A stretch of DNA of 37,388 bases from IMG/VR virus record IMGVR_UViG_2778261448_000003; one strand, written 5' to 3'. Positions within the stretch are counted from its first letter, which is position 1. Each line of letters starts with the position of its first letter. This stretch comes from a virus. Taxonomy: Duplodnaviria; Heunggongvirae; Uroviricota; Caudoviricetes. Below, in pieces: positions 18,301 through 36,865 of this stretch. Below the pieces are notes generated by a model that was not told where the DNA came from, made no database searches, and saw only the letters and a program-made list of their open reading frames with translations. The position numbers and the translations under genes are program-made.

Positions 18301-19637
18301 ATAAGCGCTGACTTAAGGGTTGTGGTATTACGCCTGATATGATTTAACGTGCCGATGAATTACTCTCACGATAACTGGTCAGCAATTCTGGCCCATATTG
18401 GTAAGCCCGAAGAACTGGATACTTCGGCACGTAATGCCGGGGCTCTAACCCGCCGCCGCGAAATTCGTGATGCTGCAACTCTGCTACGTCTGGGGCTGGC
18501 TTACGGCCCCGGGGGGATGTCATTACGTGAAGTCACTGCATGGGCTCAGATCCATGACGTTGCAACATTATCTGACGTGGCTCTCCTGAAGCGGCTGCGG
18601 AATGCCGCCGACTGGTTTGGCATACTTGCCGCACAAACACTTGCTGTACGCGCCGCAGTTACGGGTTGTACAAGCGGAAAGAGATTGCGTCTTGTCGATG
18701 GAACAGCAATCAGTGCGCCCGGGGGCGGCAGCGCTGAATGGCGACTACATATGGGATATGATCCTCATACCTGTCAGTTCACTGATTTTGAGCTAACCGA
18801 CAGCAGAGACGCTGAACGGCTGGACCGATTTGCGCAAACGGCAGACGAGATACGCATTGCTGACCGGGGATTCGGTTCGCGTCCCGAATGTATCCGCTCA
18901 CTTGCTTTTGGAGAAGCTGATTATATCGTCCGGGTTCACTGGCGAGGATTGCGCTGGTTAACTGCAGAAGGAATGCGCTTTGACATGATGGGTTTTCTGC
19001 GCGGGCTGGATTGCGGTAAGAACGGTGAAACCACTGTAATGATAGGCAATTCAGGTAATAAAAAAGCCGGAGCTCCCTTTCCGGCACGTCTCATTGCCGT
19101 ATCACTTCCTCCCGAAAAAGCATTAATCAGTAAAACCCGACTGCTCAGCGAGAATCGTCGAAAAGGACGAGTAGTTCAGGCGGAAACGCTGGAAGCAGCG
19201 GGCCATGTGCTATTGCTAACATCATTACCGGAAGATGAATATTCAGCAGAGCAAGTGGCTGATTGTTACCGTCTGCGATGGCAAATTGAACTGGCTTTTA
19301 AGCGGCTCAAAAGTTTGCTGCACCTGGATGCTTTGCGTGCAAAGGAACCTGAACTCGCGAAAGCGTGGATATTTGCTAATCTACTCGCCGCATTTTTAAT
19401 TGACGACATAATCCAGCCATCGCTGGATTTCCCCCCCAGAAGTGCCGGATCCGAAAAGAAGAACTAACTCGTTGTGGAGAATAACAAAAATGGTCATCTG
19501 GAGCTTACAGGTGGCCATTCGTGGGACAGTATCCCTGACAGCCTACAAAACGCAATTGAAGAACGCGAGGCATCGTCTTAACGAGGCACCGAGGCGTCGC
19601 ATTCTTCAGATGGTTCAACCCTTAAGTTAGCGCTTAT
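18301..19637 (+). mobile_element. IS186 (IS4 family) insertion sequence, complete, with ~23-bp terminal inverted repeats and a ~13-bp target-site duplication GGGACTCGAACCC
   Basis: Ends CATAAGCGCTGACTTAAGGGTTG ... CAACCCTTAAGTTAGCGCTTATG; identical flanking GGGACTCGAACCC at 18288-18300 and 19638-19650; internal transposase ORF. Confidence 0.9.
18349..19467 (+). CDS. insL: IS186 transposase (DDE, IS4 family)
   Basis: 372 aa ORF MPMNYSHDNWSAILAHIGKPEELDTSARNAGALTRRREIRD... recognised as the IS186 transposase. Confidence 0.9.
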   Translation: MPMNYSHDNWSAILAHIGKPEELDTSARNAGALTRRREIRDAATLLRLGLAYGPGGMSLREVTAWAQIHDVATLSDVALLKRLRNAADWFGILAAQTLAVRAAVTGCTSGKRLRLVDGTAISAPGGGSAEWRLHMGYDPHTCQFTDFELTDSRDAERLDRFAQTADEIRIADRGFGSRPECIRSLAFGEADYIVRVHWRGLRWLTAEGMRFDMMGFLRGLDCGKNGETTVMIGNSGNKKAGAPFPARLIAVSLPPEKALISKTRLLSENRRKGRVVQAETLEAAGHVLLLTSLPEDEYSAEQVADCYRLRWQIELAFKRLKSLLHLDALRAKEPELAKAWIFANLLAAFLIDDIIQPSLDFPPRSAGSEKKN

Positions 19638-20351: not shown

Positions 20352-20426
<75 letters not shown>

Positions 20427-20429
20427 ATA

Positions 20430-20505
<76 letters not shown>

Positions 20506-20507
20506 AC

Positions 20508-20584
20508 TGGACCGCCACCGAGGACTCGAACCTCGCACACTCAACTTAAAGGGTTAACACTCTTTCTTGGTGAACTGGTGGCGG
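20508..20584 (-). tRNA. Atypical tRNA-like gene X (isotype uncertain; possible UUU anticodon with C33)
   Basis: CCGCCAC...CGAGG-TTCGAGT-CCTCG-GTGGCGG-T-CCA: perfect acceptor and T-arm, but D-loop lacks GG and anticodon loop is CCTTTAA; paralogous to tRNA-like Y. Confidence 0.45.
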
Positions 20585-20585
20585 T

Positions 20586-20661
20586 TGGTGGCCCTTGCTG
20601 GATTCGAACCAGCGACCTGGCGATTATGAGTCGCTCGCTCTCACCACTGAGCTAAAGGGCC
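20586..20661 (-). tRNA. tRNA-Ile2-like (anticodon CAU, ileX/ileZ type)
   Basis: GGCCCTTTAGCTCAGTGGTGAGAGCGAGCGACTCATAATCGCCAGGTCGCTGGTTCGAATCCAGCAAGGGCCACCA; closer to E. coli ileX than to elongator Met. Confidence 0.75.
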
Positions 20662-20687: not shown

Positions 20688-21401
20688 TCAAAAATCAAGC
20701 CCTTGCATAGATACATATCTGTCTGGCGGGAAGCCATAATAGCGGTGAAATACAGAGATAAAGTAGGATCTACTTGAATAACCGCATTTTTCTGCTACAG
20801 CCTGTCCATATCCATGCCGGGAGCATAACATATTTACAGCAACCCGCATCCGTTCCTCAAGTAACAAATTACTGAACCTGAGACCTTCATCCTTGAGTTT
20901 TTTCTTTAACAAGCTCTCACTCATATGCAACTGTAGAGCAATCGCACCAAGCGTCCAGCTTGCTGATATATCTGTTTGAATTATCGCTCTGACTTTGGCA
21001 CTTATACTGGATAAACATCCACTTAAAAATAATAACATCCGTTCATCTGATTCAAACAACGACAGGCAGGCCATCATAAGAAACATGTCCGTGGTCTCTC
21101 CGGAAAGTCTCTGGCTGGTAATTAAAGCCACAGCCAACGCAGGATTGTTGGGTTCCTGCGACAAGTAAAGCGGAATGTCAGTCAGAGGAGTTCTTGTCAG
21201 CTTATGCTGACTTTCCAGATATTGACTTACTATAGAATGGTTTATATCGACAATTTTAACTTTGCCATAATGCATAAGGAAAAGCTCCCTGATGCATTTG
21301 GTGGCCAAAACAACTGAGCCGGGCTTAAGTGACAACGTATCCTTTTCAAGAAAAATATTAATTGGGGAGCAAACCATGATAACTGAACAGACAACAGCCA
21401 T
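20688..21401 (-). CDS. AraC/XylS-family transcriptional regulator (AppY/PatE-like prophage regulator)
   Basis: C-terminal dual-HTH AraC signature (LGAIALQLHMSESLLKKKLKDEGLRFSNLLLEERMRVAVNML...AEKCGYSSRSYFISVFHRYYGFPP); start ambiguous between 21401 and 21377. Confidence 0.75.
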   Translation of the reverse strand: MAVVCSVIMVCSPINIFLEKDTLSLKPGSVVLATKCIRELFLMHYGKVKIVDINHSIVSQYLESQHKLTRTPLTDIPLYLSQEPNNPALAVALITSQRLSGETTDMFLMMACLSLFESDERMLLFLSGCLSSISAKVRAIIQTDISASWTLGAIALQLHMSESLLKKKLKDEGLRFSNLLLEERMRVAVNMLCSRHGYGQAVAEKCGYSSRSYFISVFHRYYGFPPDRYVSMQGLDF

Positions 21402-24460: not shown

Positions 24461-24616
24461 TTACTCCTCAGGTTCGTAAGCTGTGAAGACAGCGACCTCC
24501 GTCTGGCCGGTTCGGATTCGCACCTCGCAGAGGTCTTTCCTCGTTACCAGTGCCGTCACTATGACGGTTAAACAGATGACGATCAGGGCGATTAGCATCG
24601 CCTTTTGCTGCTTCAT
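24461..24616 (-). CDS. hok: Hok/Gef-family type I toxin (51 aa membrane peptide)
   Basis: Own translation: MKQQKAMLIALIVICLTVIVTALVTRKDLCEVRIRTGQTEVAVFTAYEPEE, matching HokD/RelF as recalled; absent from the ORF track because it is under 60 aa. Confidence 0.9.
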   Translation of the reverse strand: MKQQKAMLIALIVICLTVIVTALVTRKDLCEVRIRTGQTEVAVFTAYEPEE

Positions 24617-25249
24617 AGCCTGCTTCTCCTTGACCTTTCGGTCCGTAAGAGGCTAATCTCTATGTGTCGCATAGATATGGCCTCAGATTAATGTTAAGCG
24701 TCTTGCAGGACGCGTAATGTTAACTGGGGCTTTTCTCTATCTGCCGTTGGTGTTCATGCCCGAGGCAGATAGCCTCAAGCACCCACAGCCATTCTACTTA
24801 ACTACCGTTACCTCGCCAACATGAAATCAATCAGAAAGGCGAACCATAAGAACAATAACAACAATTAAATTCATTTTCTCAAATCCTGTTAACGACGCCC
24901 ATCCGACACTAACAACTTTCATTTATTATACTATTTCCCCATCGACGCTCTGCGTTGGCATAACACAAATCTGTCTGTCCGTTTGAGTAAAGAGCGGATA
25001 TCTGCAGTTTCAAAGAAACTGCGCATGCACACGAACTATCAAAGATAGTGATAACTGAGATAAAAACATATGGAAGCCTTCGGCATTTAAAAATAACAGC
25101 AAATCATATAAAAGGAAAGAGATAAGCAACATTTACATAACATGTATCACGATACGCCCCAGTGTTAATAAAAAGACTATCACTTTATTCTTTTATAATG
25201 TTAGTTTGCACTAGCAAGTGCCACTCCGAACAGAAAAAGGATACATGTA

Positions 25250-27061
25250 ATGAAGCTACAGCAATTTAATATTAAAAATTACAAGTCGATAAAAGATGAA
25301 ATAGAAGTATATATCGATGATATAGTTGTGCTAATTGGTCCAAATAACTCTGGAAAGTCAACAATATTAGATGCGTATGAAAAGTTTGCATCTTTAGGAT
25401 CAGCAAAAGGCCTGACTGCTCATGATTTTTATAACTCAGATATATCTATACCAATTGAAATGTGCGGAATTTTCACTGATATCACTGATGATGATATTCG
25501 TACATTAGGGGGAGAGAAATGGTTTTATAAAGATGATGCTCTTGACAGAAGAAATATGGCAAGAAAGTATGGGGGAGATTGGGAGAAAAATAATACACCA
25601 TTGGAAAGCAAACTCTATTATTGTGTTAAATGGGTTTGGTCACATCCAGAAAAAGCAGCCCAAAAACAATCCTATGGCCTTGATGATGCCTCTGGCAAAC
25701 GCATATTTATTGATGGGGGCTCTGGGGGACTTGACACACTACTACAAAGCCGAGTTCCTCAACCAATAAGAATAAGCCCAGATAAATCCATGGATGAAAC
25801 TAAAAAAATTATCATAAGTTTCTTAAAGGAAGATGCAAAAGATGAGTTACTGAAAACAGGGGAAAGTAAAGCTGATATAATACAGAAAATACAAGAGTTG
25901 ACAGACACTCTTATGAAAGATTCCAAATCAAAAATCGATGATCTTCTACAGCAGGTCTCCAAATCATCATCATCTGTTTTTCCTGGGCTAGAACTGGAAT
26001 TAAACATACTTTCCAAGGATCCCGTAGATGCGGATGTTATGGTTTCAGAATCTAACCTTACAGTGAAAATGGATGGGATAAATAGCTCTCTTCTCGAGAA
26101 CCAAGGTCACGGTGTTCGCCGCTCCGTTTTATGGTCTGCTTTGCAAATTTTGACTCACGAATCTCATGCACGAGATAAAATAAAAAAAGCGAAAGGTAAG
26201 CCTATCTCTGTTGAGAAAAAACAATATATTTTATTGATTGATGAGCCTGAATCATTTCTTCACCCTCCTATAATTAGAAGTGCGAGGGACTCGCTTTATG
26301 ATTTTGCAGCAAACAATGATAACTGGCAGGTGATGGCTACAACACACTCCCCTGTATTCATAGACTTATCCAAGAAGCACACGACTATAATTAGGATAGA
26401 AAAAGACAAATCTCTAAATAAAACAATATCTACAGATGAACTATCTTTTTCTGAAGAGGAAAAAGATAATATGAAAATGATAAGATTATGTAACCCAATG
26501 GTTAATGAGTTTTTCTTTTACGACAATATAATATTAGTTGAAGGACCAACTGAAAAAATCGTCATTAACAAAATATGTGATATTGTCGGAGTTGATTATC
26601 ATATCATTGACTGTTTAGGAAAAGGGAATATAAAAACATTTGCTAAAATATTAAATCAATTTAACGTTGAGTATATAGCAGTACATGACTCCGACATTCC
26701 AAAATGCTTAAAGCAAGGAAGCGTTTCAGGTAATGGAGCATGGGGTTCAAATGTATCCATAATGAACGAATGCTCTAAAAGTAAAAAACCAATGGTATTT
26801 ATTCAAATACCTCATTTCGAAGGACTGTTTTTTAAAAATTTCAATCCATCAAACAAAGTTGAAACAGTAACATCAGTTCTATCTAATAATTTAACACCAG
26901 AATACAAAGCAATATTTGATACATATAGCAGAATTTTAAACAAAGATCCTTCTGTTTTTATCAGCTCCAACGAAAAAATGATAGACATGTATCATGCATT
27001 TTATGCCAGTAATAAAAACCAAATTGAGACGCTAAAGAATCCTGAAATCTGGATCCTTTAA
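25250..27061 (+). CDS. OLD-family nuclease: N-terminal ABC-type ATPase fused to C-terminal Toprim domain (class-1, stand-alone)
   Basis: 603 aa; Walker A GPNNSGKST, Walker B/D-loop LLIDEPESFLHP, Toprim motifs LVEGPTE and HDSD; very AT-rich gene unlike the flanking prophage DNA. Confidence 0.8.
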   Translation: MKLQQFNIKNYKSIKDEIEVYIDDIVVLIGPNNSGKSTILDAYEKFASLGSAKGLTAHDFYNSDISIPIEMCGIFTDITDDDIRTLGGEKWFYKDDALDRRNMARKYGGDWEKNNTPLESKLYYCVKWVWSHPEKAAQKQSYGLDDASGKRIFIDGGSGGLDTLLQSRVPQPIRISPDKSMDETKKIIISFLKEDAKDELLKTGESKADIIQKIQELTDTLMKDSKSKIDDLLQQVSKSSSSVFPGLELELNILSKDPVDADVMVSESNLTVKMDGINSSLLENQGHGVRRSVLWSALQILTHESHARDKIKKAKGKPISVEKKQYILLIDEPESFLHPPIIRSARDSLYDFAANNDNWQVMATTHSPVFIDLSKKHTTIIRIEKDKSLNKTISTDELSFSEEEKDNMKMIRLCNPMVNEFFFYDNIILVEGPTEKIVINKICDIVGVDYHIIDCLGKGNIKTFAKILNQFNVEYIAVHDSDIPKCLKQGSVSGNGAWGSNVSIMNECSKSKKPMVFIQIPHFEGLFFKNFNPSNKVETVTSVLSNNLTPEYKAIFDTYSRILNKDPSVFISSNEKMIDMYHAFYASNKNQIETLKNPEIWIL

Positions 27062-27696: not shown

Positions 27697-28773
27697 TTAC
27701 CCCCTGAAGCCCGGTGGAATTTCGGTATCCGGTTCAGAAATATGATTCACACAACGCTGGTTGTTCGTGCCGCTTACCTGGAGCAACCAGGGGTTTTCAA
27801 AATTCCGGTCCGGTCCAAAAAACGTCGTCGCCCGCTGAACAAATTCCGTTCCCGTTTTCCCGGTAACCGCTAGGTATCTTGCGTAACGCCTCACGCCATC
27901 CAGCATTGCCTCTGGTGGCACCCCCTCGCGTAATCTGGCCTTCCAGGCACTGAAAGCGGATTTCTTCGGGTTTGCCCCGGCACGCAACGGGTACTCCCGC
28001 CAGACCTGTTCGAACACATCCGGATAATCCACTCGTCCCACAGACTGCCCGGTGTTTTCCGGGACTACCCGATCGGCTTCCCGCTGAATGGCGGAATCGG
28101 CTTCAGGCTGCTGCAGTTGGTGTGATTGCTCCGGCCTTGCGGTCATCACCTGCTGCACAGCGCCCGAATCGGCTTTCAGCGCATACGCTGAATCGGCTTC
28201 CGGTGTCGTGCCTGCTGGCTGACCAAGATTGACGGTCTGAACATCCCCTGCCTGGTTCGTGGCGTTTTTTACGCCATGGACCATAGTGTTTTGATCTTCT
28301 TGATCTGTATCTTTATCTGTATCTTTATCTGTCGTGACTCGTCGTGACATGTGCGTGACATTTCGTGACGCGCCGTGACAATCGCCATTTTGTTCCCGCT
28401 TTCTTTCCCTCTCTCGCTGCGCCCTCTTGCGCTCTGCAGGAGATTTTGCGGTTTGCGAAATATTGCCGTTGTCCTCTTTAAGCACCTGGCGTTTTTCCCA
28501 TCCAGTGATTAAATCACCATCAAGTACCCGCCCCTGCATCGTCTGCAAAATTGAATCAATTACCTCTTCTGTCACGTCGAGCGCACTTGCCAAATCTTCT
28601 GTCGTGACATCAATGTGACCTCGCGTGACATTTCGTGACGCGCTCACCAGGAGGTGGATATACACTGCCATCACTGTTGCAATTGGCTGCCCTGACACCC
28701 TGGCAATTGTTCGCCACTTAGGGTCATTTGGCATGTCATGCCATAATCTGAGCCAGGCGTTAGCCATACTCAC
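27697..28773 (-). CDS. Replication initiation/replisome organiser protein (lambda O-like role), with internal iterons
   Basis: 358 aa; conserved phage replication-protein C-terminal region (VWREYPLRAG...FSAWKARLREGVPPEAMLDGVRRYARYLAVTGKTGTEFVQRATTFFGP); two iteron clusters inside the ORF. Confidence 0.7.
   Translation of the reverse strand: MSMANAWLRLWHDMPNDPKWRTIARVSGQPIATVMAVYIHLLVSASRNVTRGHIDVTTEDLASALDVTEEVIDSILQTMQGRVLDGDLITGWEKRQVLKEDNGNISQTAKSPAERKRAQRERERKREQNGDCHGASRNVTHMSRRVTTDKDTDKDTDQEDQNTMVHGVKNATNQAGDVQTVNLGQPAGTTPEADSAYALKADSGAVQQVMTARPEQSHQLQQPEADSAIQREADRVVPENTGQSVGRVDYPDVFEQVWREYPLRAGANPKKSAFSAWKARLREGVPPEAMLDGVRRYARYLAVTGKTGTEFVQRATTFFGPDRNFENPWLLQVSGTNNQRCVNHISEPDTEIPPGFRG
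28300..28640. repeat. Putative origin of replication: two clusters of CGTGAC iterons (28331-28380, five copies at ~10-bp spacing; 28600-28640, four copies) plus a tandem TGTATCTTTATC repeat
   Basis: Direct repeats visible in sequence, inside the O-like gene as lambda ori lies inside O. Confidence 0.65.
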
Positions 28774-28838: not shown

Positions 28839-29264
28839 TCAATGTACTGCCACAGCATTTCCTGCCGGGCCACCACGGTTCATCTGATTGAAACCGGCGA
28901 TTGCCACTGCGACAAAATCATCAGCGTCTCTCACCAATCGCTCCCGCGTCTCCACCAGCTCCCGAAAATAAGCTGAACTGTGGCTGCGCATTCTGGCCAC
29001 CAGCAAAGGCGGCATTGCCTTTTCGATCGCTGGTAACAACGCCTGAATTTTTTCAACTGCATCAGGGGTGTCTTTCTCTACCCAGCGGAAAATTTTCTGG
29101 GTATTGCGAGCCAGGGCTTCCGGATGGCTGTCGTCATACAGTTCAGGAAACGTCATACCCAACTCAAAATAAGCCTGGGTTATTCCAGCTGCCGGAACTT
29201 TTTCACCATCCGGATGCGCCCAGGCATTCATCGCCATGCGGATGTGCTCATGTTTGATTTTCAT
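28839..29264 (-). CDS. YdaT-like protein (Rac-type; cII-position gene)
   Basis: 141 aa starting MKIKHEHI, recalled as the Rac YdaT N-terminus; immediately downstream of the Cro-like gene. Confidence 0.55.
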   Translation of the reverse strand: MKIKHEHIRMAMNAWAHPDGEKVPAAGITQAYFELGMTFPELYDDSHPEALARNTQKIFRWVEKDTPDAVEKIQALLPAIEKAMPPLLVARMRSHSSAYFRELVETRERLVRDADDFVAVAIAGFNQMNRGGPAGNAVAVH

Positions 29265-29563
29265 GAATCAACTCCATCAGATAAGCATGCACTACAATCA
29301 CCTTCAGCATGAACTACATGTGTTTGCCCCAAACGAATGCCGCTCGCATACTCAGGCCAAATAAGCTCCCAATCATGGGGTCGTAGCTCCGCCCTACTTA
29401 CTTGGCCTTCCGTCGCAGATTCGATCATAAGGGCACGGGTTGGAGATATAGCTGCTCGTCCAGACGCCATTTGCGATAAGTAAGATGGCGATACACCAAG
29501 TCTGGCCGCGAATTTCTTAGCATCACCAACCCTCAATGATTTAATAAACTCTTTTAATGTCAT
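29261..29563 (-). CDS. Cro/YdaS-like HTH transcriptional regulator
   Basis: 100 aa; HTH segment FAARLGVSPSYLSQMASGR; first gene of the rightward early operon, divergent from the repressor gene. Confidence 0.7.
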   Translation of the reverse strand: MTLKEFIKSLRVGDAKKFAARLGVSPSYLSQMASGRAAISPTRALMIESATEGQVSRAELRPHDWELIWPEYASGIRLGQTHVVHAEGDCSACLSDGVDS

Positions 29564-29660
29564 ACCTTCCTCGGTTTAGTGTTTTTTTGCGAGTTTAGTG
29601 TTTAATAAACCATTAAGTCAAGTATTTGCTTGTTTAGTGATTACTAAAGATAATTACCAC
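29564..29660. promoter_or_regulatory. OR-like operator/promoter region: three copies of GTTTAGTG(T/A)TT between the divergent cro-like and repressor genes; candidate pRM-like promoter (-35 TTGCTT, -10 GATAAT) that would give a leaderless repressor mRNA
   Basis: Repeats at ~29574, 29593 and 29632; promoter hexamers spaced 17 bp apart ending just before the ATG at 29661. Confidence 0.55.
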
Positions 29661-30032
29661 ATGCAAAAAAAAGAAATTCGCCGTTTACGTCTCAAGGAGT
29701 GGTTTAAAGATAAAACTCTGCCACCCAAAGAGAAGAGCTACCTATCTCAACTAATGAGTGGGAGAGCATCGTTTGGAGAAAAGGCTGCCAGAAGAATAGA
29801 GCAAACATACGGGATGCCGGAAGGGTATCTGGATGCGGAATACGCAGAACAACCGGAGGTTTCTCCACCACATGCAGGGTTAACGCCTAATCAACTGGAA
29901 TTATTGCAGATTTTTTCAGCCTTCCCTGAGGATGAGCAACGCCAGATAATCAGCGAGTTAAAGCAGAAAAAAGAATCAATGGAAGATCTCATAGCGAGAT
30001 GGATTGCGGCGCAAAAATGCCGCCGCGCCTGA
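29661..30032 (+). CDS. CI/RacR-like prophage repressor (HTH, no peptidase domain)
   Basis: ORF 29598..30032; start placed at MQKKEIRR; HTH around KSYLSQLMSGRASFGEKAARRIE; sits in the cI position. Confidence 0.6.
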   Translation: MQKKEIRRLRLKEWFKDKTLPPKEKSYLSQLMSGRASFGEKAARRIEQTYGMPEGYLDAEYAEQPEVSPPHAGLTPNQLELLQIFSAFPEDEQRQIISELKQKKESMEDLIARWIAAQKCRRA

Positions 30033-30052
30033 GTTATAAAACCGGAGGAAAC

Positions 30053-30244
30053 ATGAATAGAGCCCTTTCACCAATGGTTTCTGAATTTGAAACCATTGAA
30101 CAAGAAAACAGTTACAACGAATGGCTGCGTGCGAAAGTAGCAACGAGCCTTGCAGATCCGCGCCCAGCAATTCCCCATGACGAAGTTGAGCGCAGAATGG
30201 CAGAACGCTTTGCTAAAATGCGCAAGGAACGGAGCAAGCAGTAA
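30053..30244 (+). CDS. ParD/RHH-like antitoxin (63 aa)
   Basis: Start MNRALSP preceded by GGAGGA RBS; stop is 1 nt before the toxin ATG; sequence character of ParD-type antitoxins. Confidence 0.6.
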   Translation: MNRALSPMVSEFETIEQENSYNEWLRAKVATSLADPRPAIPHDEVERRMAERFAKMRKERSKQ

Positions 30245-30245
30245 A

Positions 30246-30524
30246 ATGTTACCCGTGTTATGGCTTGAAAGCGCAGATACCGACCTAGATGATATAACTA
30301 GTTATATTGCTCGTTTCGACATAGATGCGGCTGAACGCTTATGGCAGCGATTAAGGGGTTGTGTGCTGCCGTTATCCGAACATCCGTATTTATACCCACC
30401 AAGCGACAGAGTACCCGGCTTGCGTGAGATTGTAGCCCACCCTAACTATATAATTCTATACCGCGTAACAACATCAAGCGTTGAAGTAGTAAACGTGATC
30501 CACGCAAGACGCCAGTTTCCCTAA
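30246..30524 (+). CDS. ParE/RelE-family toxin (92 aa)
   Basis: Start MLPVLWLESADTDLDDITSYIARF...; C-terminal YIILYRVTTSSVEVVNVIHARR typical of ParE/RelE plasmid-stabilisation toxins. Confidence 0.65.
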   Translation: MLPVLWLESADTDLDDITSYIARFDIDAAERLWQRLRGCVLPLSEHPYLYPPSDRVPGLREIVAHPNYIILYRVTTSSVEVVNVIHARRQFP

Positions 30525-30589
30525 CTTTCACTACCAATAGAAACATAGCAACCGCAACGACTTTATCAAAAGCGTTGTGTTTGTTACGC

Positions 30590-30640
30590 TCCGTGGTTTA
30601 GTTTTTACTTGACTTAAGTTTAATGTTTATTAAACTAAAA
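30590..30640 (+). promoter_or_regulatory. OL/pL-like region: GTTTAGT operator-like repeats overlapping a sigma70-like promoter (-35 TTGACT, -10 TAAACT)
   Basis: TGGTTTAGTTTTTACTTGACTTAAGTTTAATGTTTATTAAACT; shares the repeat core with the OR region; precedes the plus-strand early-left genes. Confidence 0.5.
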
Positions 30641-30815
30641 ATACCAACCCACCCCGAGCCACAGAACGCCAGGCAATACTTCGAGTTATCCGGCAGTGGT
30701 CAGGGGATAAGTAGCCAGCCCGAGGCGTAAGAACATGACGGCAGGGTTCAACTTTAATAACTATGCAGCAGGTTTTTGTTCCGCTACCCCAGCGTTAAGG
30801 GGAAATGAGGTCAAC

Positions 30816-31945: not shown

Positions 31946-32506
31946 TTCACCCTCCTGAGGGTTGGTGATTAAGGAGTTCTCCACGGGTGAGGTGGAGTGC
32001 GTGCGCCGGACACGGGTGAGCATACGGCACTGACAGTTTACTGAAAGGATATTTCCCTGAAAAGTCAGACCATAACGCGAAAGCGCACGGCGAGGTAGCT
32101 GGTTCATAGATAGCCTGTCGTTAAATTTTCGTCGACCGTGCGCTTCCGGTTGTGGCACTCCGCGAAATGGCGCGACGGTAAGTATGGCGGGGTTATTCCT
32201 TCCCCGTTGAGGACACCGGGTTGTCAGGTTGACCATACGCTTAAGTGACAACCCCGCTACAACGCCCTCTGTTATCAATTTTCTGGTGACGTTTGGCGGT
32301 ATCAGTTTTACTCCGTGGCTGCTCTGCCGCCCTTTTTAAAGTGAATTTTGTGATGCGGTGAATGCGGCTAAGCGCACGCGGAACAGTTAAAACCAAAAAC
32401 AGTGTTATGGGTGGATTCTCTGTATCCGACGTTAATTGTTAACTGGTTAACGTCACCTGGAGGCACCAGGCACCGCATCACAAAATTCATTGTTGAGGAC
32501 GCGATA

Positions 32507-32695
32507 ATGGAAACGTTATTACCAAACGTTAATACGTCTGAAGGTTGTTTTGAAATTGGTGTCACTATCAGTAACCCTGTATTTACTGAAGATGCCATTA
32601 ACAAGAGAAAACACGAACGGGAGTTATTAAATAAAATATGCATTCTTTCAATGCTGGCCCGTTTACGTCCGATACAAAAAGGATGCTGGCAATGA
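32507..32695 (+). CDS. Hypothetical small protein (62 aa)
   Basis: Start METLLPNV; stop overlaps the start region of the next small gene. Confidence 0.4.
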   Translation: METLLPNVNTSEGCFEIGVTISNPVFTEDAINKRKHERELLNKICILSMLARLRPIQKGCWQ

Positions 32696-32975: not shown

Positions 32976-35447
32976 ATGAGTAAAGTCTTTATTTGCGCCG
33001 CCATTCCGGACGAACAGGCAATAAAGGAAGAAGGTGCAGTCGCTGTAGCTACTGCCATTGAAGCCGGTGATGAACGTCGCGCCCGCGCAAAATTTCACTG
33101 GCAATTCCTGGAACATTATCCGGCTGCTCAGGACTGCGCTTATAAATTTCTTGTCTGCGAGGATAAACCCGGTATACCCCGCCCTGCCCTCGATTCCTGG
33201 GATGCTGAATATATGCAGGAAAACCGCTGGGATGAGGAGTCTGCTTCCTTTGTCCCGGTTGAGACTGAATCAGATCCGATGAACGTCACTTTTGACAAGC
33301 TGGCCCCTGAAGTACAGAACGCTGTCATGGTTAAGTTCGACACATGTGAAAACATCACTGTTGATATGGTGATTAGCGCACAGGAATTGTTGCAGGAAGA
33401 CATGGCAACATTCGACGGCCATATCGTTGAAGCGTTGATGAAAATGCCAGAAGTAAACGCCATGTATCCGGAGCTTAAGCTGCATGCCATCGGGTGGGTT
33501 AAGCATAAATGTAAGCCTGGTGCCAAATGGCCCGAAATTCAGGCAGAGATGTGCATCTGGAAAAAACGTCGCGAAGGTGAACGCAAGGAAACCGGAAAAT
33601 ACACGTCTGTTGTTGATCTCGCCCGCGCCAGACCCAATCAACAGAACACTGAAAATTCAACAGGAAAAATCAACCCGGTCATTGCTGCCACTCATCGCGA
33701 ATACAAGCAGACATGGAAAACACTGGATGACGAACTGGCCTACGCTCTCTGGCCTGGTGATGTGGATGCCGGAAACATTGACGGCAGCATCCATCGCTGG
33801 GCAAAAAATGAAGTTATCGACAACGACCGCGAAGACTGGAAGCGTATCTCGGCATCAATGCGCAAACAGCCTGATGCCCTTCGCTACGACCGCCAGACTA
33901 TTTTTGGCCTTGTCCGTGAACGTCCGATCGACATTCACAAAGACCCTGTGGCACTGAACAAATACATTACTGAATACCTGACTACAAAGGGCGTGTTTGA
34001 AGATGAAGGAAGAAATCAGAGCGCAACTGATACTCTCTCGTCGCCAGTACCAGAAACTGATGCAGTGGAAACGGCAATTCCGGACAACGAAAAAACCGAA
34101 TGCAAAGTGGAAGTCGAACCATCTGTAGAGCGTGAGGGGCCGTTCTACTTCCTCTTCACCGACAAGAATGGCGAAAAATACGGTCGCGCAAACAAACTTT
34201 CTGGTCTGGATAAGGCGCTGGCTGCCGGGGCTACTGAAATCACGAAAGAAGAATATTTCGCCCGCAAAAACGGTACATACTCAGGTTCACAACAAAATAC
34301 TGGTGCATCTGACACGACCGCACAACCAGAGCCGGTAAAAGTTACCGCTGACGAAGTAAACAAAATTATGCAGGCAGCCAATATCAGCCGGCCTGACGCC
34401 GATGAACTGCTTGCAGTATCACGTGGTGAATTTGTTGCAGGGATTAGCGATCCGAATGATCCGAAATGGGTGAAGGGGATTGAAACCCGCGATTCTGTGA
34501 ACCAGAACCAGCAAGAAACGGAACAGAACGACCAGAAAGCGGAACAAAACAGCCCAAATGCGTTACAAAATGAGCCAGAAACGAAACAATCCGAACCAGT
34601 AGCGCAACAGGAACCGGAAAAAGTCTGCACCGCCTGCGGTCAGAGCGGTGGCGGCAACTGCCCTGATTGTGGCGCGGTGATGGGCGACGCAACATACCAG
34701 GAAACATTCGATGAAGAGAATCAGGTTGAAGTTCAGGAAAATGATCCGGAGGAAATGGAAGGCGCTGAACATCCACACAAGGAGAACCCTGGCGGCAATC
34801 AGCATCACGCCAGCGATAATAAAACTGGCGAGGCGACAGATCCCTTAATTAAGGTGAATGGTCATTATAAGCTCACATCCACCAGCAGAGCGGGGATTCA
34901 TCTGATGATCGACCTTGAAACAATGGGAAAAAATCCCGATGCCCCGATTATCTCAATAGGCGCAATATTTTTCGATCCACAAACCGGAGAGATGGGGCCG
35001 GAATTTAGCAAGACCATCGATCTGGATACGGCTGGCGGAGTCATTGATCGTGACGTCATTAAATGGTGGCTGAAGCAATCACGTGAAGCGCAGTCTGCCA
35101 TTATGACCGATGAAATCCCGTTAGATGATGCACTACTGCAATTGCGGGAATTTATCGACGAAAACTCCGGTGAATTTTTTGTTCAGGTCTGGGGTAATGG
35201 GGCCAACTTCGACAACGTGATTTTACGCCGTTCATACGAACGACAGGGTATCCCCTGCCCGTGGCGCTACTGCAACGATCGCGATGTACGCACAATCGTT
35301 GAGCTGGGGAAAGCCATAGACTTCGATGCCAGAACTGCTATCCCATTCGAAGGTGAGCGCCATAATGCACTTGATGACGCTCGTTACCAGGCAAAATACG
35401 TTTCAGCTATCTGGCAAAAACTGATCCCGAGTCAGGCTGATTTTTAA
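32976..35447 (+). CDS. RecE (exodeoxyribonuclease VIII)-like early protein with C-terminal DEDD-type 3'-5' exonuclease domain
   Basis: 823 aa; central LLAVSRGEFVAGISDPNDPKWVKGIETRD segment recalled from Rac RecE; C-terminal DLETMG...NGANFD...HNALDDARY is a DnaQ-like DEDDh signature; Cys4 motif CTACG...CPDCG. Confidence 0.6.
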   Translation: MSKVFICAAIPDEQAIKEEGAVAVATAIEAGDERRARAKFHWQFLEHYPAAQDCAYKFLVCEDKPGIPRPALDSWDAEYMQENRWDEESASFVPVETESDPMNVTFDKLAPEVQNAVMVKFDTCENITVDMVISAQELLQEDMATFDGHIVEALMKMPEVNAMYPELKLHAIGWVKHKCKPGAKWPEIQAEMCIWKKRREGERKETGKYTSVVDLARARPNQQNTENSTGKINPVIAATHREYKQTWKTLDDELAYALWPGDVDAGNIDGSIHRWAKNEVIDNDREDWKRISASMRKQPDALRYDRQTIFGLVRERPIDIHKDPVALNKYITEYLTTKGVFEDEGRNQSATDTLSSPVPETDAVETAIPDNEKTECKVEVEPSVEREGPFYFLFTDKNGEKYGRANKLSGLDKALAAGATEITKEEYFARKNGTYSGSQQNTGASDTTAQPEPVKVTADEVNKIMQAANISRPDADELLAVSRGEFVAGISDPNDPKWVKGIETRDSVNQNQQETEQNDQKAEQNSPNALQNEPETKQSEPVAQQEPEKVCTACGQSGGGNCPDCGAVMGDATYQETFDEENQVEVQENDPEEMEGAEHPHKENPGGNQHHASDNKTGEATDPLIKVNGHYKLTSTSRAGIHLMIDLETMGKNPDAPIISIGAIFFDPQTGEMGPEFSKTIDLDTAGGVIDRDVIKWWLKQSREAQSAIMTDEIPLDDALLQLREFIDENSGEFFVQVWGNGANFDNVILRRSYERQGIPCPWRYCNDRDVRTIVELGKAIDFDARTAIPFEGERHNALDDARYQAKYVSAIWQKLIPSQADF

Positions 35448-35508: not shown

Positions 35509-35778
35509 ATGAGCGAACAGTACCTGATAACGCTCGATGAGTGGAAGCCAAAACGGTTCAGTCTCCCAATAACAAACACTACCCTGGTGAAATACGGAAA
35601 ACTAGGATACATCGTTCCAAGACCACAAAAAATTCGTGGGCGTTGGCTGATAGATCGCCGGGCAGTATTTGTTGGACCTGGTGAAACGGGAATTGCGCCG
35701 GAAATTCATACTGGCGATGATGATGCACTGAAGGAGATTTTAACTCATGTCACCGAGGCCACGAAAAAACAGCACTGA
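35509..35778 (+). CDS. xis: Excisionase-like DNA-binding protein (Xis)
   Basis: Small basic protein immediately upstream of and overlapping int, in the lambda xis position. Confidence 0.6.
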   Translation: MSEQYLITLDEWKPKRFSLPITNTTLVKYGKLGYIVPRPQKIRGRWLIDRRAVFVGPGETGIAPEIHTGDDDALKEILTHVTEATKKQH

Positions 35779-36865
35779 CGTAACCGGTCTTTACGAAAAG
35801 TTTGATCGCAGAACTGGCAGGGTTTACTACCAGTATAAAAACCCTGTGACTGGAAAATTTCACGGTCTCGGAACAGACAAAGGCAAAGCAGAAAAAATCG
35901 CTTCCACAGCCAATCAGCGAATAGCTGCAGCAGAAGCTGAATATTTCATGCGCAAAATTGATGAAAGTCCGTCAGCAACAAAACGTCGGGGTATCAGATT
36001 AAAGGCATGGGTTGATCGATATCTGAAAATACAGGACGCGCGACTGAAAAATGGAGATATTGCAGCAACAACTCACAAAGAAAAAGCCCGAATGGCTGCA
36101 TACCTGGTTTCCCGTCTGGGAAACCACCCATTGAAAGAACTGGAAGTAAGAGACTTTGCATTAATACTGGATGAGTGGCTGGATAAAGACATGGTCAGCA
36201 CAGCGAGAGTAAATCGTGGATTATGGGTTGATATTTATAAAGAAGCACAGCATGCAGGGGAAGTTCCTCCTGGATGGAATCCTCCGGAGGCTACCCGTAA
36301 ACCGATCCCTAAAGTAACCAGAGCCAGACTCACCCTGGAGGACTGGCAAAAAATTTACAATTCAACACCAGAAAAACACTTTATCCGTAACGCAATGCTT
36401 CTTGCGATTGTTACTGGTCAGCGCCGTGATGACATTTGCCACATGCGTTTTTCAGATGTGTGGAACGAACACTTGCATATCACCCAGGGAAAAACCGGAA
36501 TGCGTCTGGCGTTACCGCTTACGCTACGCTGTGATGCCATTGGAATATCGCTAAAAGAAGTGATTGATGGATGCAAGGACAGAATATTGAGTCCATACCT
36601 GATTCATAGTCGGCACCAGAAACAACCAAAACCAATGAGTAAAGATAACCTGAGCGACTACTTTGCTAAAGCGCGGGATCTGGCAGGAATAACTCCACCA
36701 GCAGGAAAAACACCACCAACATTTCATGAACAACGCTCCCTGTCAGAACGACTGTACCGCGCACAGGGTATCGATACAAAAACATTACTGGGACATAAAG
36801 TCCAAGCAACCACCGATCGTTATAACGATACTCGTGGTCAGGAATGGGTTAAATTGGTTGTTTGA
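35747..36865 (+). CDS. int: Tyrosine integrase (lambda Int family)
   Basis: 372 aa; C-terminal catalytic region LAIVTGQRRDD...HEQRSLSERLY...LLGHK...TTDRYNDTRGQEW aligns with lambda Int R-H-R-Y active-site segments. Confidence 0.9.
   Translation: MSPRPRKNSTDVTGLYEKFDRRTGRVYYQYKNPVTGKFHGLGTDKGKAEKIASTANQRIAAAEAEYFMRKIDESPSATKRRGIRLKAWVDRYLKIQDARLKNGDIAATTHKEKARMAAYLVSRLGNHPLKELEVRDFALILDEWLDKDMVSTARVNRGLWVDIYKEAQHAGEVPPGWNPPEATRKPIPKVTRARLTLEDWQKIYNSTPEKHFIRNAMLLAIVTGQRRDDICHMRFSDVWNEHLHITQGKTGMRLALPLTLRCDAIGISLKEVIDGCKDRILSPYLIHSRHQKQPKPMSKDNLSDYFAKARDLAGITPPAGKTPPTFHEQRSLSERLYRAQGIDTKTLLGHKVQATTDRYNDTRGQEWVKLVV

Follow-up and report, generated by a model that had tools for sequence, protein, structure and literature searches.

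Assignment of a prophage control region to CP-933P/Sp12-type immunity

Genes and control sites of the immunity region

The window, by which we mean the whole 37,388-base stretch of phage DNA that was analyzed, contains two divergent groups of genes on either side of a short intergenic spacer, together with a second group of control sites beyond the rightward genes. The features are listed below, where the IR numbers are those of the published CP-933P map (PMC8630535), placed on window coordinates by us.

28839..29264, minus strand: ydaT, functional analogue of lambda cII (Pfam YdaT_toxin, E=7e-10)
29254..29271, no strand assigned: YdaT box TTGATTTTCATGAATCAA, OM in the PRE region, where ydaS stops and ydaT starts
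29261..29563, minus strand: ydaS, Cro analogue (Pfam YdaS_toxin, E=4e-12, and HTH_3)
29574..29591, plus strand: repeat copy 1, GTTTAGTGTTTTTTTGCG, probably IR4, a half-palindrome within the 5' leader of ydaS
29592..29621, minus strand: PR for ydaS-ydaT, with TTGACT at 29621-29616, an 18-nt spacer and TAAACT at 29597-29592 (promoter scan)
29593..29610, plus strand: repeat copy 2, GTTTAGTGTTTAATAAAC, probably IR3, a perfect GTTTA-N8-TAAAC that covers the -10 and spacer of PR
29626..29654, plus strand: PRM for paaR2-paaA2-parE2, with TTGCTT at 29626-29631, a 17-nt spacer and GATAAT at 29649-29654
29632..29649, plus strand: repeat copy 3, GTTTAGTGATTACTAAAG, probably IR1, a palindrome that occupies the spacer of PRM
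29661..30032, plus strand: paaR2, CI-like repressor, 123 aa
30053..30244, plus strand: paaA2, antitoxin, 63 aa (Pfam PaaA2, E=1e-19; PDB 3zbe/5cw7, E=6e-37)
30246..30524, plus strand: parE2, toxin, 92 aa (Pfam ParE_toxin, E=2e-16; PDB 5cw7 chain B, residues 1-92, E=7e-60)
30596-30613 and 30618-30635, plus strand: OL operators GTTTAGTTTTTACTTGAC and GTTTAATGTTTATTAAAC, the second a perfect palindrome
30609..30636, plus strand: PL for the early-left operon, with TTGACT at 30609-30614, a 16-nt spacer and TAAACT at 30631-30636 (promoter scan)

We assign this locus, with a probability of about 0.95, to CP-933P/Sp12-type immunity, the lysis/lysogeny switch of a lambdoid prophage, here in an E. coli prophage; we found no evidence that contradicts this. 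Alignment to the O157:H7 strain PV15-279 established that the spacer (29564-29660, 97 bp) has 100% identity to the paaR2/ydaS intergenic region of CP-933P/Sp12, and that the PL core is identical from 30597 onward. PV15-279, which bears the EDL933-specific primer variant, served as the O157:H7 reference, and published coordinates were carried over to the window through the primer list of Jurenas et al. 2021 (mBio, PMC8630535) and the PV15-279 genome alignment. Every EDL933 primer used for EMSA or for the reporters of PRM, PR and PL maps to the window with 0 mismatches (those of the PL reporter to 30525-30545 and 30621-30642), and two EDL933 footprint primers map with 0 and 1 mismatches. The spacer identity and the 0-mismatch primers together identify the OR operator and promoter DNA as that of CP-933P-type immunity. 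The switch was already mapped in 2021 by 5' RACE, EMSA and DNase I footprinting, as the initial annotation had proposed, and by reporters, and these experiments demonstrated transcription starts, binding, repression, activation and bistability on DNA identical to ours (PMC8630535). The initial annotation, which described an immunity region of repressor, Cro-like gene and operators, was thus correct but not new. The spacer is indeed flanked by divergent genes; we correct the limits of the intergenic DNA to 29564-29660, with the repressor ATG at 29661.

Genes and gene order are shared with CP-933P/Sp12 (PMC8630535, PMC9986795), and the YdaT box is identical. PaaR2 is identical at 120 of 123 residues, and the paaA2 and parE2 coding sequences differ by one base each. 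Six base differences from O157:H7 lie upstream of the PL -35 (30548-30596), including a G at 30596 where O157:H7 has an A. The ydaT gene has diverged from O157:H7 more than the rest of the module, with 2 and 6 mismatches in the two EDL933 primers for ydaT. The window prophage is, however, not CP-933P itself. It has a different backbone, with differing replication, lysis and structural modules, including a 358-aa replisome-organizer gene where CP-933P/Sp12 has an HTH and ATPase pair. The early-left genes immediately after PL also differ, and the window carries an IS element and a nuclease of the OLD family, along with integrase and exonuclease genes that look intact.

Residues 1-65 of PaaR2 are identical to PDB 7nkv/8c3k, and the three amino-acid differences from O157:H7 PaaR2 (positions 66, 67 and 76) fall between the N- and C-terminal parts. 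The protein matches PHROG 5736 'transcriptional regulator' (E=1e-39). Its C-terminal part, of roughly 50 residues, is without a family match, and Pfam gave no match to Peptidase_S24 in the 123 residues even at E<=1. This agrees with the initial annotation and with PMC8630535, both of which describe a repressor that lacks a peptidase domain, and sets PaaR2 apart from self-cleaving repressors of the LexA/lambda-CI type, in which a C-terminal S24 domain carries a Ser/Lys dyad. YdaS matches PDB 8c7k 'Phage antirepressor protein Cro' (residues 1-100, E=7e-63). YdaT matches PDB 3c4r (E=6e-90) and the CP-933P YdaT structure 8bt1 (E=3e-80). The divergent ydaS-ydaT pair lies 97 bp from paaR2, a spacer length equal to that in PMC8630535. 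TTGATT-N6-AATCAA occurs once in the window, as the YdaT box; in CP-933P, footprinting identified this inverted repeat as the site that YdaT binds with high affinity (PMC9986795), and the EDL933 PRE primers map around the box in the window, to 29236-29355. Our literature search found no later paper that defines the PaaR2 operator or accounts for PDB entries 8c3k, 8c3l, 8c7k and 8co2.

The paaA2 and parE2 genes are co-oriented with paaR2 and immediately downstream of it, and a GGAGG ribosome-binding site precedes paaA2. Since paaR2 opens the three-gene operon paaR2-paaA2-parE2, the immunity region includes a toxin-antitoxin module. This pair, co-transcribed with the repressor, was overlooked in the initial annotation.

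Promoters and operators

The -10 hexamer of PRM is separated from the paaR2 ATG by 6 nt, TACCAC, and the sequence before the ATG contains no Shine-Dalgarno sequence. The promoter scan of the window did not call this pair because TTGCTT matches TTGACA at only three of six positions. The initial annotation had picked out TTGCTT-17-GATAAT just before the repressor ATG and had proposed from it that the repressor is read from a leaderless message, like that of lambda PRM. Experiments on the identical CP-933P DNA bear this out: 5' RACE placed the PRM933P start on the A of the paaR2 ATG, which makes the message leaderless, and N-terminal sequencing of PaaR2 read MQKKE, with the intact mass also measured (PMC8630535). 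The start in the window would accordingly be expected at the A at 29661.

PR and PL share the hexamers TTGACT and TAAACT in the window, as judged by promoter scan, and the -35 and -10 elements are likewise the same in PR933P and PL933P, where the ydaS start was mapped by 5' RACE (PMC8630535). At PL, GTTTAGTTTT (30596-30605) adjoins the -35 TTGACT. A related repeat overlapping a good -35/-10 pair at about 30596-30636, ahead of the early-left genes, had been noticed from the bare sequence; the scan recovered the same pair, and published reporters demonstrate that PL933P is repressed about 100-fold by PaaR2 or YdaS; the operators there are named OL1-3 (PMC8630535). The operon behind PL comprises DUF1391, ydfB, ydfC, DicF, dicB, exonuclease, xis and int, and thus includes the division inhibitors DicF and dicB.

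The window contains exactly three copies of GTTTAGTG, at 29574, 29593 and 29632, all within the 97-bp spacer, as had been reported for the DNA between the Cro-like and repressor genes. They read GTTTAGTGTTT, GTTTAGTGTTT and GTTTAGTGATT, all on one strand and at spacings of 19 and 39 bp. Three copies arose somewhere in 5 of 100 whole-window shuffles, and GTTTAGT by itself is not enriched (4 copies against 3.2 expected). By contrast, any complex 8-mer reached three copies in only 14 of 20,000 dinucleotide-preserving shuffles of the spacer, and no second 97-bp stretch with a three-copy complex 8-mer was found in the whole window. The clustering of the repeats is therefore a stronger signal than their copy number in the window.

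Binding of the repressor to this region, which the initial annotation had put forward, was demonstrated by EMSA and DNase I footprints on identical DNA: the footprint of PaaR2 covers about 78 bp, and that of YdaS two stretches, of 27 and 32 bp (PMC8630535). The same work describes four 18-bp repeats in OR, which are inverted and have the half-site consensus GTTTAGTAA. Copy 2 has zero mismatches to GTTTA-N8-TAAAC and lies at -68 from the ATG, and copy 3, at -29, has one mismatch. Copy 1 (29574-29591) has no recognizable second arm, and lies within the EMSA and footprint fragment made with primers FL1/FL2.

The comparative set consisted of 28 loci, the window and 27 related loci. A divergent ydaS-like gene is present in 26 of the 28. 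In 19 loci, which we refer to as the leaderless class, 6 nt (7 nt in one) lie between the end of the -10 hexamer and the ATG; these nucleotides vary in sequence but not in number. Within this class, a perfect GTTTA-N8-TAAAC lies at -66 to -69 in 17 of 19 loci (16 of 18 besides the window), and a second palindrome lies at about -29, where relatives carry GTTTAGnnnTTACTAATC at the position of copy 3. Across the 27 related loci, both arms of GTTTA-N8-TAAAC are conserved. Four of the loci (L005, L019, L020 and L030) have the same promoter template by alignment, where automated scoring favored hexamer pairs elsewhere. In Xenorhabdus and Photorhabdus the promoter is displaced by roughly 48 nt, which may give a leadered message there. 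Most loci have the OL/PL two-site pair after the repressor gene, and the first OL 18-mer (30596-30613) is identical in Burkholderia phage vB_E177. The operator and promoter template and the 6-nt gap between -10 and ATG are thus conserved across genera in these alignments. The copy at 29574 has no conserved counterpart among 18 aligned relatives, and neither has the published 'IR2' in the aligned relatives, so both may be lineage-specific; 'IR2' may alternatively consist of the two back-to-back -35 hexamers.

The initial annotation had called the three copies direct repeats. They do lie on the same strand, but each is the better-conserved arm of an 18-bp inverted repeat, so that direct repeats is not a full description. 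That they work as direct repeats, either iteron-like or as sites bound head to tail, is in our view improbable, even though the three copies are exact, the one at 29574 lacks a second arm, and PMC8630535 leaves open the use of direct as well as inverted repeats. When the 19 loci are aligned, the two arms of the upstream site, GTTTA and TAAAC, are invariant, and the center between them varies. The better-conserved arm in most relatives is ACTAA(A/T)C, on the opposite strand, and the 29574 copy is not kept. PaaR2 and YdaS, moreover, have helix-turn-helix domains, and such proteins usually bind symmetric sites as dimers.

In another reading, the repeats would serve the autoregulation of a classical type II toxin-antitoxin module, with the PaaA2-ParE2 complex as the binding protein in place of the phage repressor; we reject this as highly improbable. 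Type II operons normally autoregulate at their own promoter, and paaA2-parE2 is immediately downstream in the same operon. However, the 63-aa PaaA2 matches the PaaA2 family only, with no DNA-binding domain in Pfam. PMC8630535 also reports that PaaA2 is without a DNA-binding motif and that it is PaaR2 and YdaS that bind the spacer DNA. The same operator template is kept in the 27 relatives, none of which has a paaA2 or parE2 homologue; of the loci compared, the E. coli one alone carries the pair.

A chance product of AT-rich intergenic DNA (the spacer is 31% G+C) is refuted by the local shuffles, by the conserved positions in relatives whose repressors are 43-69% identical, and by the published protein binding to the spacer (PMC8630535).

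The proposed switch and its likeness to lambda and Rac

In the CP-933P-type switch that we propose, PaaR2 would act as a CI-like maintenance repressor, YdaS as the Cro analogue and YdaT as the CII analogue. PaaR2 and YdaS would compete for overlapping 18-bp inverted-repeat operators with the arms GTTTAG(T) and ACTAAAC. These would cover back-to-back promoters in the 97-bp spacer, PR leftwards into ydaS-ydaT and a weak PRM rightwards, and a second operator set would cover PL, the driver of the early-left operon. The PRM message would begin on the A of the paaR2 ATG and run on through paaA2-parE2. At low levels PaaR2 would activate PRM and repress PR and PL, YdaS would repress PRM first, and the mutual repression of the two proteins would give rise to two heritable states. 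Through the TTGATT-N6-AATCAA box at 29254-29271, YdaT would activate a promoter of the PRE type. We infer the bases contacted by each protein, as well as a looping of OR to OL by PaaR2 octamers. In GFP reporters, PaaR2 and YdaS each repress PRM, PR and PL, low PaaR2 activates PRM, and the locus is bistable (PMC8630535).

The arrangement resembles that of lambda in its repressor and cro genes, which diverge from a short spacer with several operators, in a weak, repressor-activated and leaderless PRM with a second operator set at PL, and in a cII-type activator at a PRE-type promoter (PMC9986795). Accessory genes are co-transcribed with the repressor in both, rexAB in lambda and paaA2-parE2 in the window. 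The components are nonetheless distinct. PaaR2 has no detectable sequence relationship to lambda CI beyond the helix-turn-helix motif and is without its S24 peptidase, and YdaT is a POU-domain tetramer structurally unrelated to CII (PMC9986795). Four 18-bp repeats (PMC8630535) stand against the three lambda operators, and OR and OL are about 1 kb apart in the window. The Rac prophage of E. coli K-12 (RacR/YdaS/YdaT) is similar in its three-regulator layout with YdaS- and YdaT-family proteins, although CP-933P YdaS shares only 26% identity with its Rac counterpart, and YdaT only 31% (PMC8630535). The YdaT boxes are nearly identical and are cross-recognized; Rac YdaT, unlike CP-933P YdaT, also binds within the racR-ydaS spacer (PMC11879457). 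The Rac repressor, RacR, is also a different protein from PaaR2.

A repressor without a peptidase and the release from repression

A C-terminal Peptidase_S24 (E=2e-15 to 3e-29), which PaaR2 lacks, is present in seven relatives that share its DNA-binding domain and operators. These include Burkholderia phage vB_E177 and Yersinia, Acerihabitans and Formosimonas prophages. Their N-terminal DNA-binding domain is 60-69% identical over the best-aligned segment, and most share with the window the operator palindromes, the back-to-back promoters and the 6-nt gap between -10 and ATG; none has the toxin-antitoxin pair. By virtue of the S24 domain, they are probably cleavable in the LexA/CI manner. The PaaR2-type DNA-binding domain thus occurs in two combinations, one with a LexA-type S24 peptidase and one with the short tail of PaaR2, and the short form, having no S24 domain, lacks the usual RecA-dependent route.

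For the route of induction we likewise rely on inference. The repressors of Gifsy-1 and Gifsy-3, P22 and 186 also lack a cleavage domain and are inactivated by antirepressors (Ant in P22, Tum in 186). A requirement of the same kind, for a dedicated antirepressor that binds PaaR2, was suggested at the close of the initial annotation. It adds to the CP-933P-type switch and does not replace it; we regard it as possible but rather unlikely. The contrast with the seven S24-bearing relatives argues in its favor. The same immunity type is also found in phage Evi, which was isolated from feces and has a 98% identical repressor, and the window prophage has apparently intact int, xis and exonuclease genes, so that some exit from repression probably exists. 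On the other hand, the early, nin-region, lysis-proximal and int-proximal ORFs of the window gave no match to antirepressor families in Pfam and PHROGs. This is weak evidence, because small antirepressors are hard to recognize and may be encoded elsewhere, in trans.

The window also has no convincing LexA box, and we set LexA control aside for it. It contains no perfect CTGT-N8-ACAG; sites with one mismatch are in excess (24 observed against 11.7 expected), which we tentatively attribute to CTG/CAG codon usage. No CTG-N10-CAG site exceeds 13 of 20 when scored against the LexA consensus, and both top-scoring sites fall within coding sequence. On the same 20-point scale, six E. coli LexA boxes score 13-18. 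The window prophage thus shares with Gifsy-1/3, P22 and 186 the short repressor without a self-cleavage domain, but neither an antirepressor gene nor a LexA-controlled promoter was found in the window. The published system, moreover, changes state by PaaR2/YdaS competition with no added factor, in a manner linked to stationary phase (PMC8630535), and the literature that we found on the CP-933P switch reports no PaaR2-binding partner.

A broader reading, to which we give somewhat less than even odds when taken as a whole, is that PaaR2-type switches may form a widespread family, so far seen in Enterobacterales and several Betaproteobacteria. The family would have a fixed scaffold (the DNA-binding domain, the GTTTA-N8-TAAAC operators, the back-to-back promoters and the leaderless PRM) joined to either an S24 peptidase or a non-cleavable tail. 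Intact tail-only phages, such as the window prophage and phage Evi, would escape by some other route, which might be a trans-acting antirepressor, a host protease, or stochastic or growth-phase switching through YdaS. The paaA2-parE2 pair, seen only in E. coli, would be a later insertion that locks the module in place.

Among 5,426 complete E. coli genomes, 593 carry the PaaR2/YdaS immunity module, O157:H7 and further lineages with Shiga toxin among them. The recovery of the module here means that a tool-free reading of raw sequence found a real phage switch, down to the unusual leaderless message, which confirms the method and is not a discovery. For the family, the S24-bearing and tail-only relatives provide a natural comparison for how a non-cleavable repressor is switched off in intact phages.

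Identity of the immunity region

The region is the immunity region paaR2-paaA2-parE2/ydaS-ydaT of CP-933P, an O157:H7 prophage known in strain Sakai as Sp12. Over residues 1-65 its CI-like repressor, PaaR2, does not differ from PDB 7nkv/8c3k, whose deposited title is 'Phage repressor protein CI', and a Pfam search with the repressor matched no family. The gene beyond the Cro-like gene matches Pfam YdaT_toxin and the YdaT structures 8bt1 and 3c4r (YdaT being the CII analogue). The toxin-antitoxin gene paaA2 has its own GGAGG ribosome-binding site.

Genes and control sites of the immunity region
29254-29271: YdaT box TTGATT-N6-AATCAA, at the ydaS stop/ydaT start; sole occurrence in the window
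29261-29563, minus strand: Cro-like gene (ydaS); Pfam YdaS_toxin and HTH_3; structure 8c7k
29564-29660: AT-rich spacer of 97 bp, 31% G+C
29621-29592, minus strand: PR, TTGACT, 18-nt spacer, TAAACT; from the promoter scan, directed into the Cro-like gene
29626-29654: PRM, TTGCTT, 17-nt spacer, GATAAT; its end is 6 nt from the ATG
29661 (ATG) to 30032 (stop), plus strand: repressor gene (paaR2), 123 aa
30053-30244, plus strand: paaA2, 63 aa; Pfam PaaA2; structures 3zbe and 5cw7
30246-30524, plus strand: parE2, 92 aa; Pfam ParE_toxin; structure 5cw7
about 30590-30640: second AT-rich stretch, after the 92-aa gene
30596: GTTTAGTTTT, a related fourth repeat
30609-30636: PL, TTGACT, 16-nt spacer, TAAACT

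The initial annotation had placed three repeats between the divergent cro-like and repressor genes, and a related repeat with a -35/-10 pair ahead of the early-left genes; all are present as described. The window, 37 kb in all, has three copies of GTTTAGTG (29574, 29593 and 29632), every one of them within the spacer. Three copies were reached in 5 of 100 whole-window shuffles, which is of moderate significance only. The clustering is more telling: when the spacer was shuffled 20,000 times with dinucleotides preserved, any complex 8-mer reached three copies in only 14 cases, and the window has no other 97-bp stretch with such an 8-mer. PR and the promoter at 30609 are joined by a 12-nt perfect inverted match (TTAAGTCAAGTA/TACTTGACTTAA). 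PRM was not called by the promoter scan because TTGCTT matches the -35 consensus at 3 of 6 positions.

A detailed study of the CP-933P immunity region, which also has a 97-bp spacer, has been published (Jurenas et al. 2021, PMC8630535). There, 5' RACE mapped transcription from PRM933P as beginning at the start codon of paaR2, and the leaderless message was translated (N-terminal sequence MQKKE), as the initial annotation had proposed from the TTGCTT-17-GATAAT promoter. The same work bears out the repressor-bound operators: in the spacer, PaaR2 gave a protected stretch of about 78 bp and YdaS gave two, of 27 and 32 bp. Four 18-bp inverted repeats, equally spaced, were described, with GTTTAGTAA as the consensus of their half-sites. 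PL933P, situated beyond parE2, shares its -35/-10 hexamers with PR, has three OL sites, and was repressed about 100-fold by PaaR2 or by YdaS. PR was stronger than PRM, which low PaaR2 activated; a PRE-type promoter was activated by YdaT, and the locus was bistable (PMC8630535). YdaT gave a footprint on TTGATT-N6-AATCAA (Prolic-Kalinsek et al. 2023, PMC9986795).

Judged by sequence, the control regions of the window are the very DNA tested in these publications. No mismatch to the window was found in the EDL933 primers of the EMSA fragment and of the PRM, PR and PL reporters; of the two footprint primers, one matches fully and the other has 1 mismatch. The remaining primer mismatches are confined to ydaT and DNA outside the module. 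In alignment, the spacer is 100% identical to that of O157:H7 strain PV15-279. From 30597 onward the PL core shows no difference; six substitutions fall at 30548-30596, and through one of them the first base of the fourth repeat is G in the window and A in O157:H7. PaaR2 differs from the O157:H7 protein at positions 66, 67 and 76, between its N- and C-terminal parts. Of 5,426 complete E. coli genomes, 593 carry the operator spacer, 581 of them with 99% identity or more.

Conservation of the operators and repressor

Relatives were taken from phage genomes by tblastn, and a further 25 loci came from a pattern scan with one genome per species. The phage genomes gave Escherichia phage Evi, a coliphage from infant faeces (PMC10910852), with a repressor 98% identical; Klebsiella phage 5 LV-2017, with a homologue 45% identical; and Burkholderia phages that share the N-terminal domain only. 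The 25 loci come from a range of genera (Xenorhabdus, Photorhabdus, Arsenophonus, Morganella, Klebsiella, Raoultella, Erwinia, Pantoea, Yersinia, Enterobacter, Citrobacter, Acerihabitans) and also from betaproteobacteria (Glomeribacter, Formosimonas, a Neisseriaceae isolate). Of the 28 loci, the window included, 26 have a ydaS-like gene in divergent orientation. Just after the paaR2 ATG-C lies a run of eight A (29665-29672); Evi carries a synonymous A-to-G change within it, and the Morganella homologue (L014, about 2491-2510) seems frameshifted in the equivalent run, through either pseudogene formation or sequencing error.

The initial annotation had proposed looking for the operator core in other prophages; 19 of the 28 loci share one template. 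It consists of an upstream element GTTTA-N8-TAAAC at about -67, GTCAAG (the opposite-strand form of the PR -35), TTGCTT, the palindrome GTTTAGnnnTTACTAATC filling the 17-nt PRM spacer, and a -10 hexamer that is mostly CAAAAT, in some loci CACAAT or GATAAT. The gap from the -10 to the ATG is 6 nt (7 nt in one locus); its sequence varies and its length does not, as would be predicted for a transcript obliged to begin at the ATG. In the upstream palindrome the centre is variable and both arms are invariant, which favours recognition of an inverted repeat. The three same-sequence direct copies of the initial annotation exist, but the conserved arms point to inverted-repeat recognition, and neither the 29574 copy nor 'IR2', one of the published inverted repeats, has a conserved counterpart in the relatives compared.

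Eight Xenorhabdus/Photorhabdus loci (L006-L011, L016, L017) keep both palindromes, but their distance from the ATG is greater by about 48 nt or more (-114/-77 or beyond), compared to -68/-29 in the leaderless class; their repressor message is probably leadered. After the repressor gene, most loci have an OL/PL pair, GTTTAnTTTTTACTTGAC followed by GTTTA-N8-TAAAC overlapping a TAAACT -10. Its main palindrome lies at +957 in the window and at +445 to +508 in the short-repressor, leaderless-class loci where one was found, a difference that matches the length of paaA2-parE2. The toxin-antitoxin pair was not found in the other 27 loci. Together these observations support the suggestion that paaA2-parE2 entered an immunity region that already existed (PMC8630535).

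Repressor form and route of induction

In seven loci (L005, L022, L024, L026, L027, L029, L030), the same DNA-binding domain is fused to Peptidase_S24 (E=2e-15 to 3e-29) in proteins of 209-222 aa; no such domain was detected in the 118-131-aa forms, PaaR2 included. The operator template is present in most S24 forms too, L029 being one that does not fit. This looks like a natural domain swap between cleavable and non-cleavable repressors.

The missing LexA-like peptidase domain, correctly noted in the initial annotation, had led to the proposal that induction may need an antirepressor. We consider this possible but less likely than not: the repressor form speaks for it, but none of the tested window ORFs matched an antirepressor family, in a search that small or trans-encoded ones would escape. 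No perfect LexA box was found in the window. Among its CTG-N10-CAG sites the highest score was 13 of 20 consensus positions, reached by sites within coding sequence; six E. coli LexA boxes score 13-18. CTGT-N8-ACAG with one mismatch occurs 24 times in the window against 11.7 expected (0 of 100 shuffles reach 24); none of these sites looks like a functional LexA box, and CTG/CAG codon usage probably accounts for the excess. In a 2009 study the repressor of Sp12 was counted as disrupted, the term 'antirepressor' stood for Cro, and no excision was seen of Sp12, whose integrase is disrupted; these findings are therefore uninformative on induction of an intact phage of this immunity type.

The switch in its prophage

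The prophage is a known immunity cassette in a different lambdoid mosaic. It differs from CP-933P in its replication module (a 358-aa replisome organiser, 27697-28773, minus strand, in place of an HTH gene and an ATPase gene), in exonuclease and integrase genes (32976-35447 and 35747-36865, both plus strand) that look intact and are disrupted in Sp12, and in additional cargo. Its YdaT is nearer PDB 3c4r than the CP-933P YdaT (8bt1).

The cargo includes an OLD-family nuclease (603 aa, 25250-27061, plus strand; PADLOC Old E=3e-73; Pfam AAA_15 and OLD-like TOPRIM), likely an anti-phage defence gene; it is flanked by the hok/sok region and the replication genes, where the window has no match in the rl0044 or O157:H7 loci. 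A sok antisense RNA (24614-24784, minus strand; Rfam, 101 bits) marks a hok/sok type I toxin-antitoxin locus, the second addiction module besides paaA2-parE2. An IS4-family DDE transposase gene (18349-19467, plus strand; Pfam DDE_Tnp_1 E=1e-26) between the lysis genes and the tRNA/Q region is a possible insertion that might disturb expression of the late genes. Three tRNA genes (Gly-TCC, Thr-TGT, Met-CAT; 20352-20661, minus strand) adjoin an AraC-family regulator (237 aa, 20688-21401, minus strand) upstream of the Q antiterminator gene, in what looks like a cargo ('moron') region.

Binding, repression and bistability have been shown in the literature on identical DNA. In the most likely working of the switch, PaaR2 and YdaS are rivals for sites that overlap, both at PR/PRM and at PL. 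When repression holds, PaaR2 shuts PR and PL and sustains its own weak PRM, whose leaderless transcript continues through paaA2-parE2. PaaR2 octamers may loop OR to OL. In the other state, YdaS represses PRM, with PR feeding ydaS-ydaT and PL the early-left operon, and YdaT at 29254-29271 could redirect transcription towards paaR2. The PL-driven operon encodes the DicF sRNA (32281-32332, plus strand; Rfam, 75 bits) and dicB (32507-32695, plus strand); therefore PaaR2 and YdaS at OL/PL should control two cell-division inhibitors. DicA exerts similar control in the Qin prophage.

Taken together, the observation is confirmed and its interpretation supported, and the system is already known; 5' RACE, EMSA and footprinting on the same sequence were published in 2021. 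The comparison makes modest additions: a template and leaderless spacing conserved family-wide, a toxin-antitoxin insertion confined to E. coli, and alternative S24 and short C-terminal halves of the repressor.
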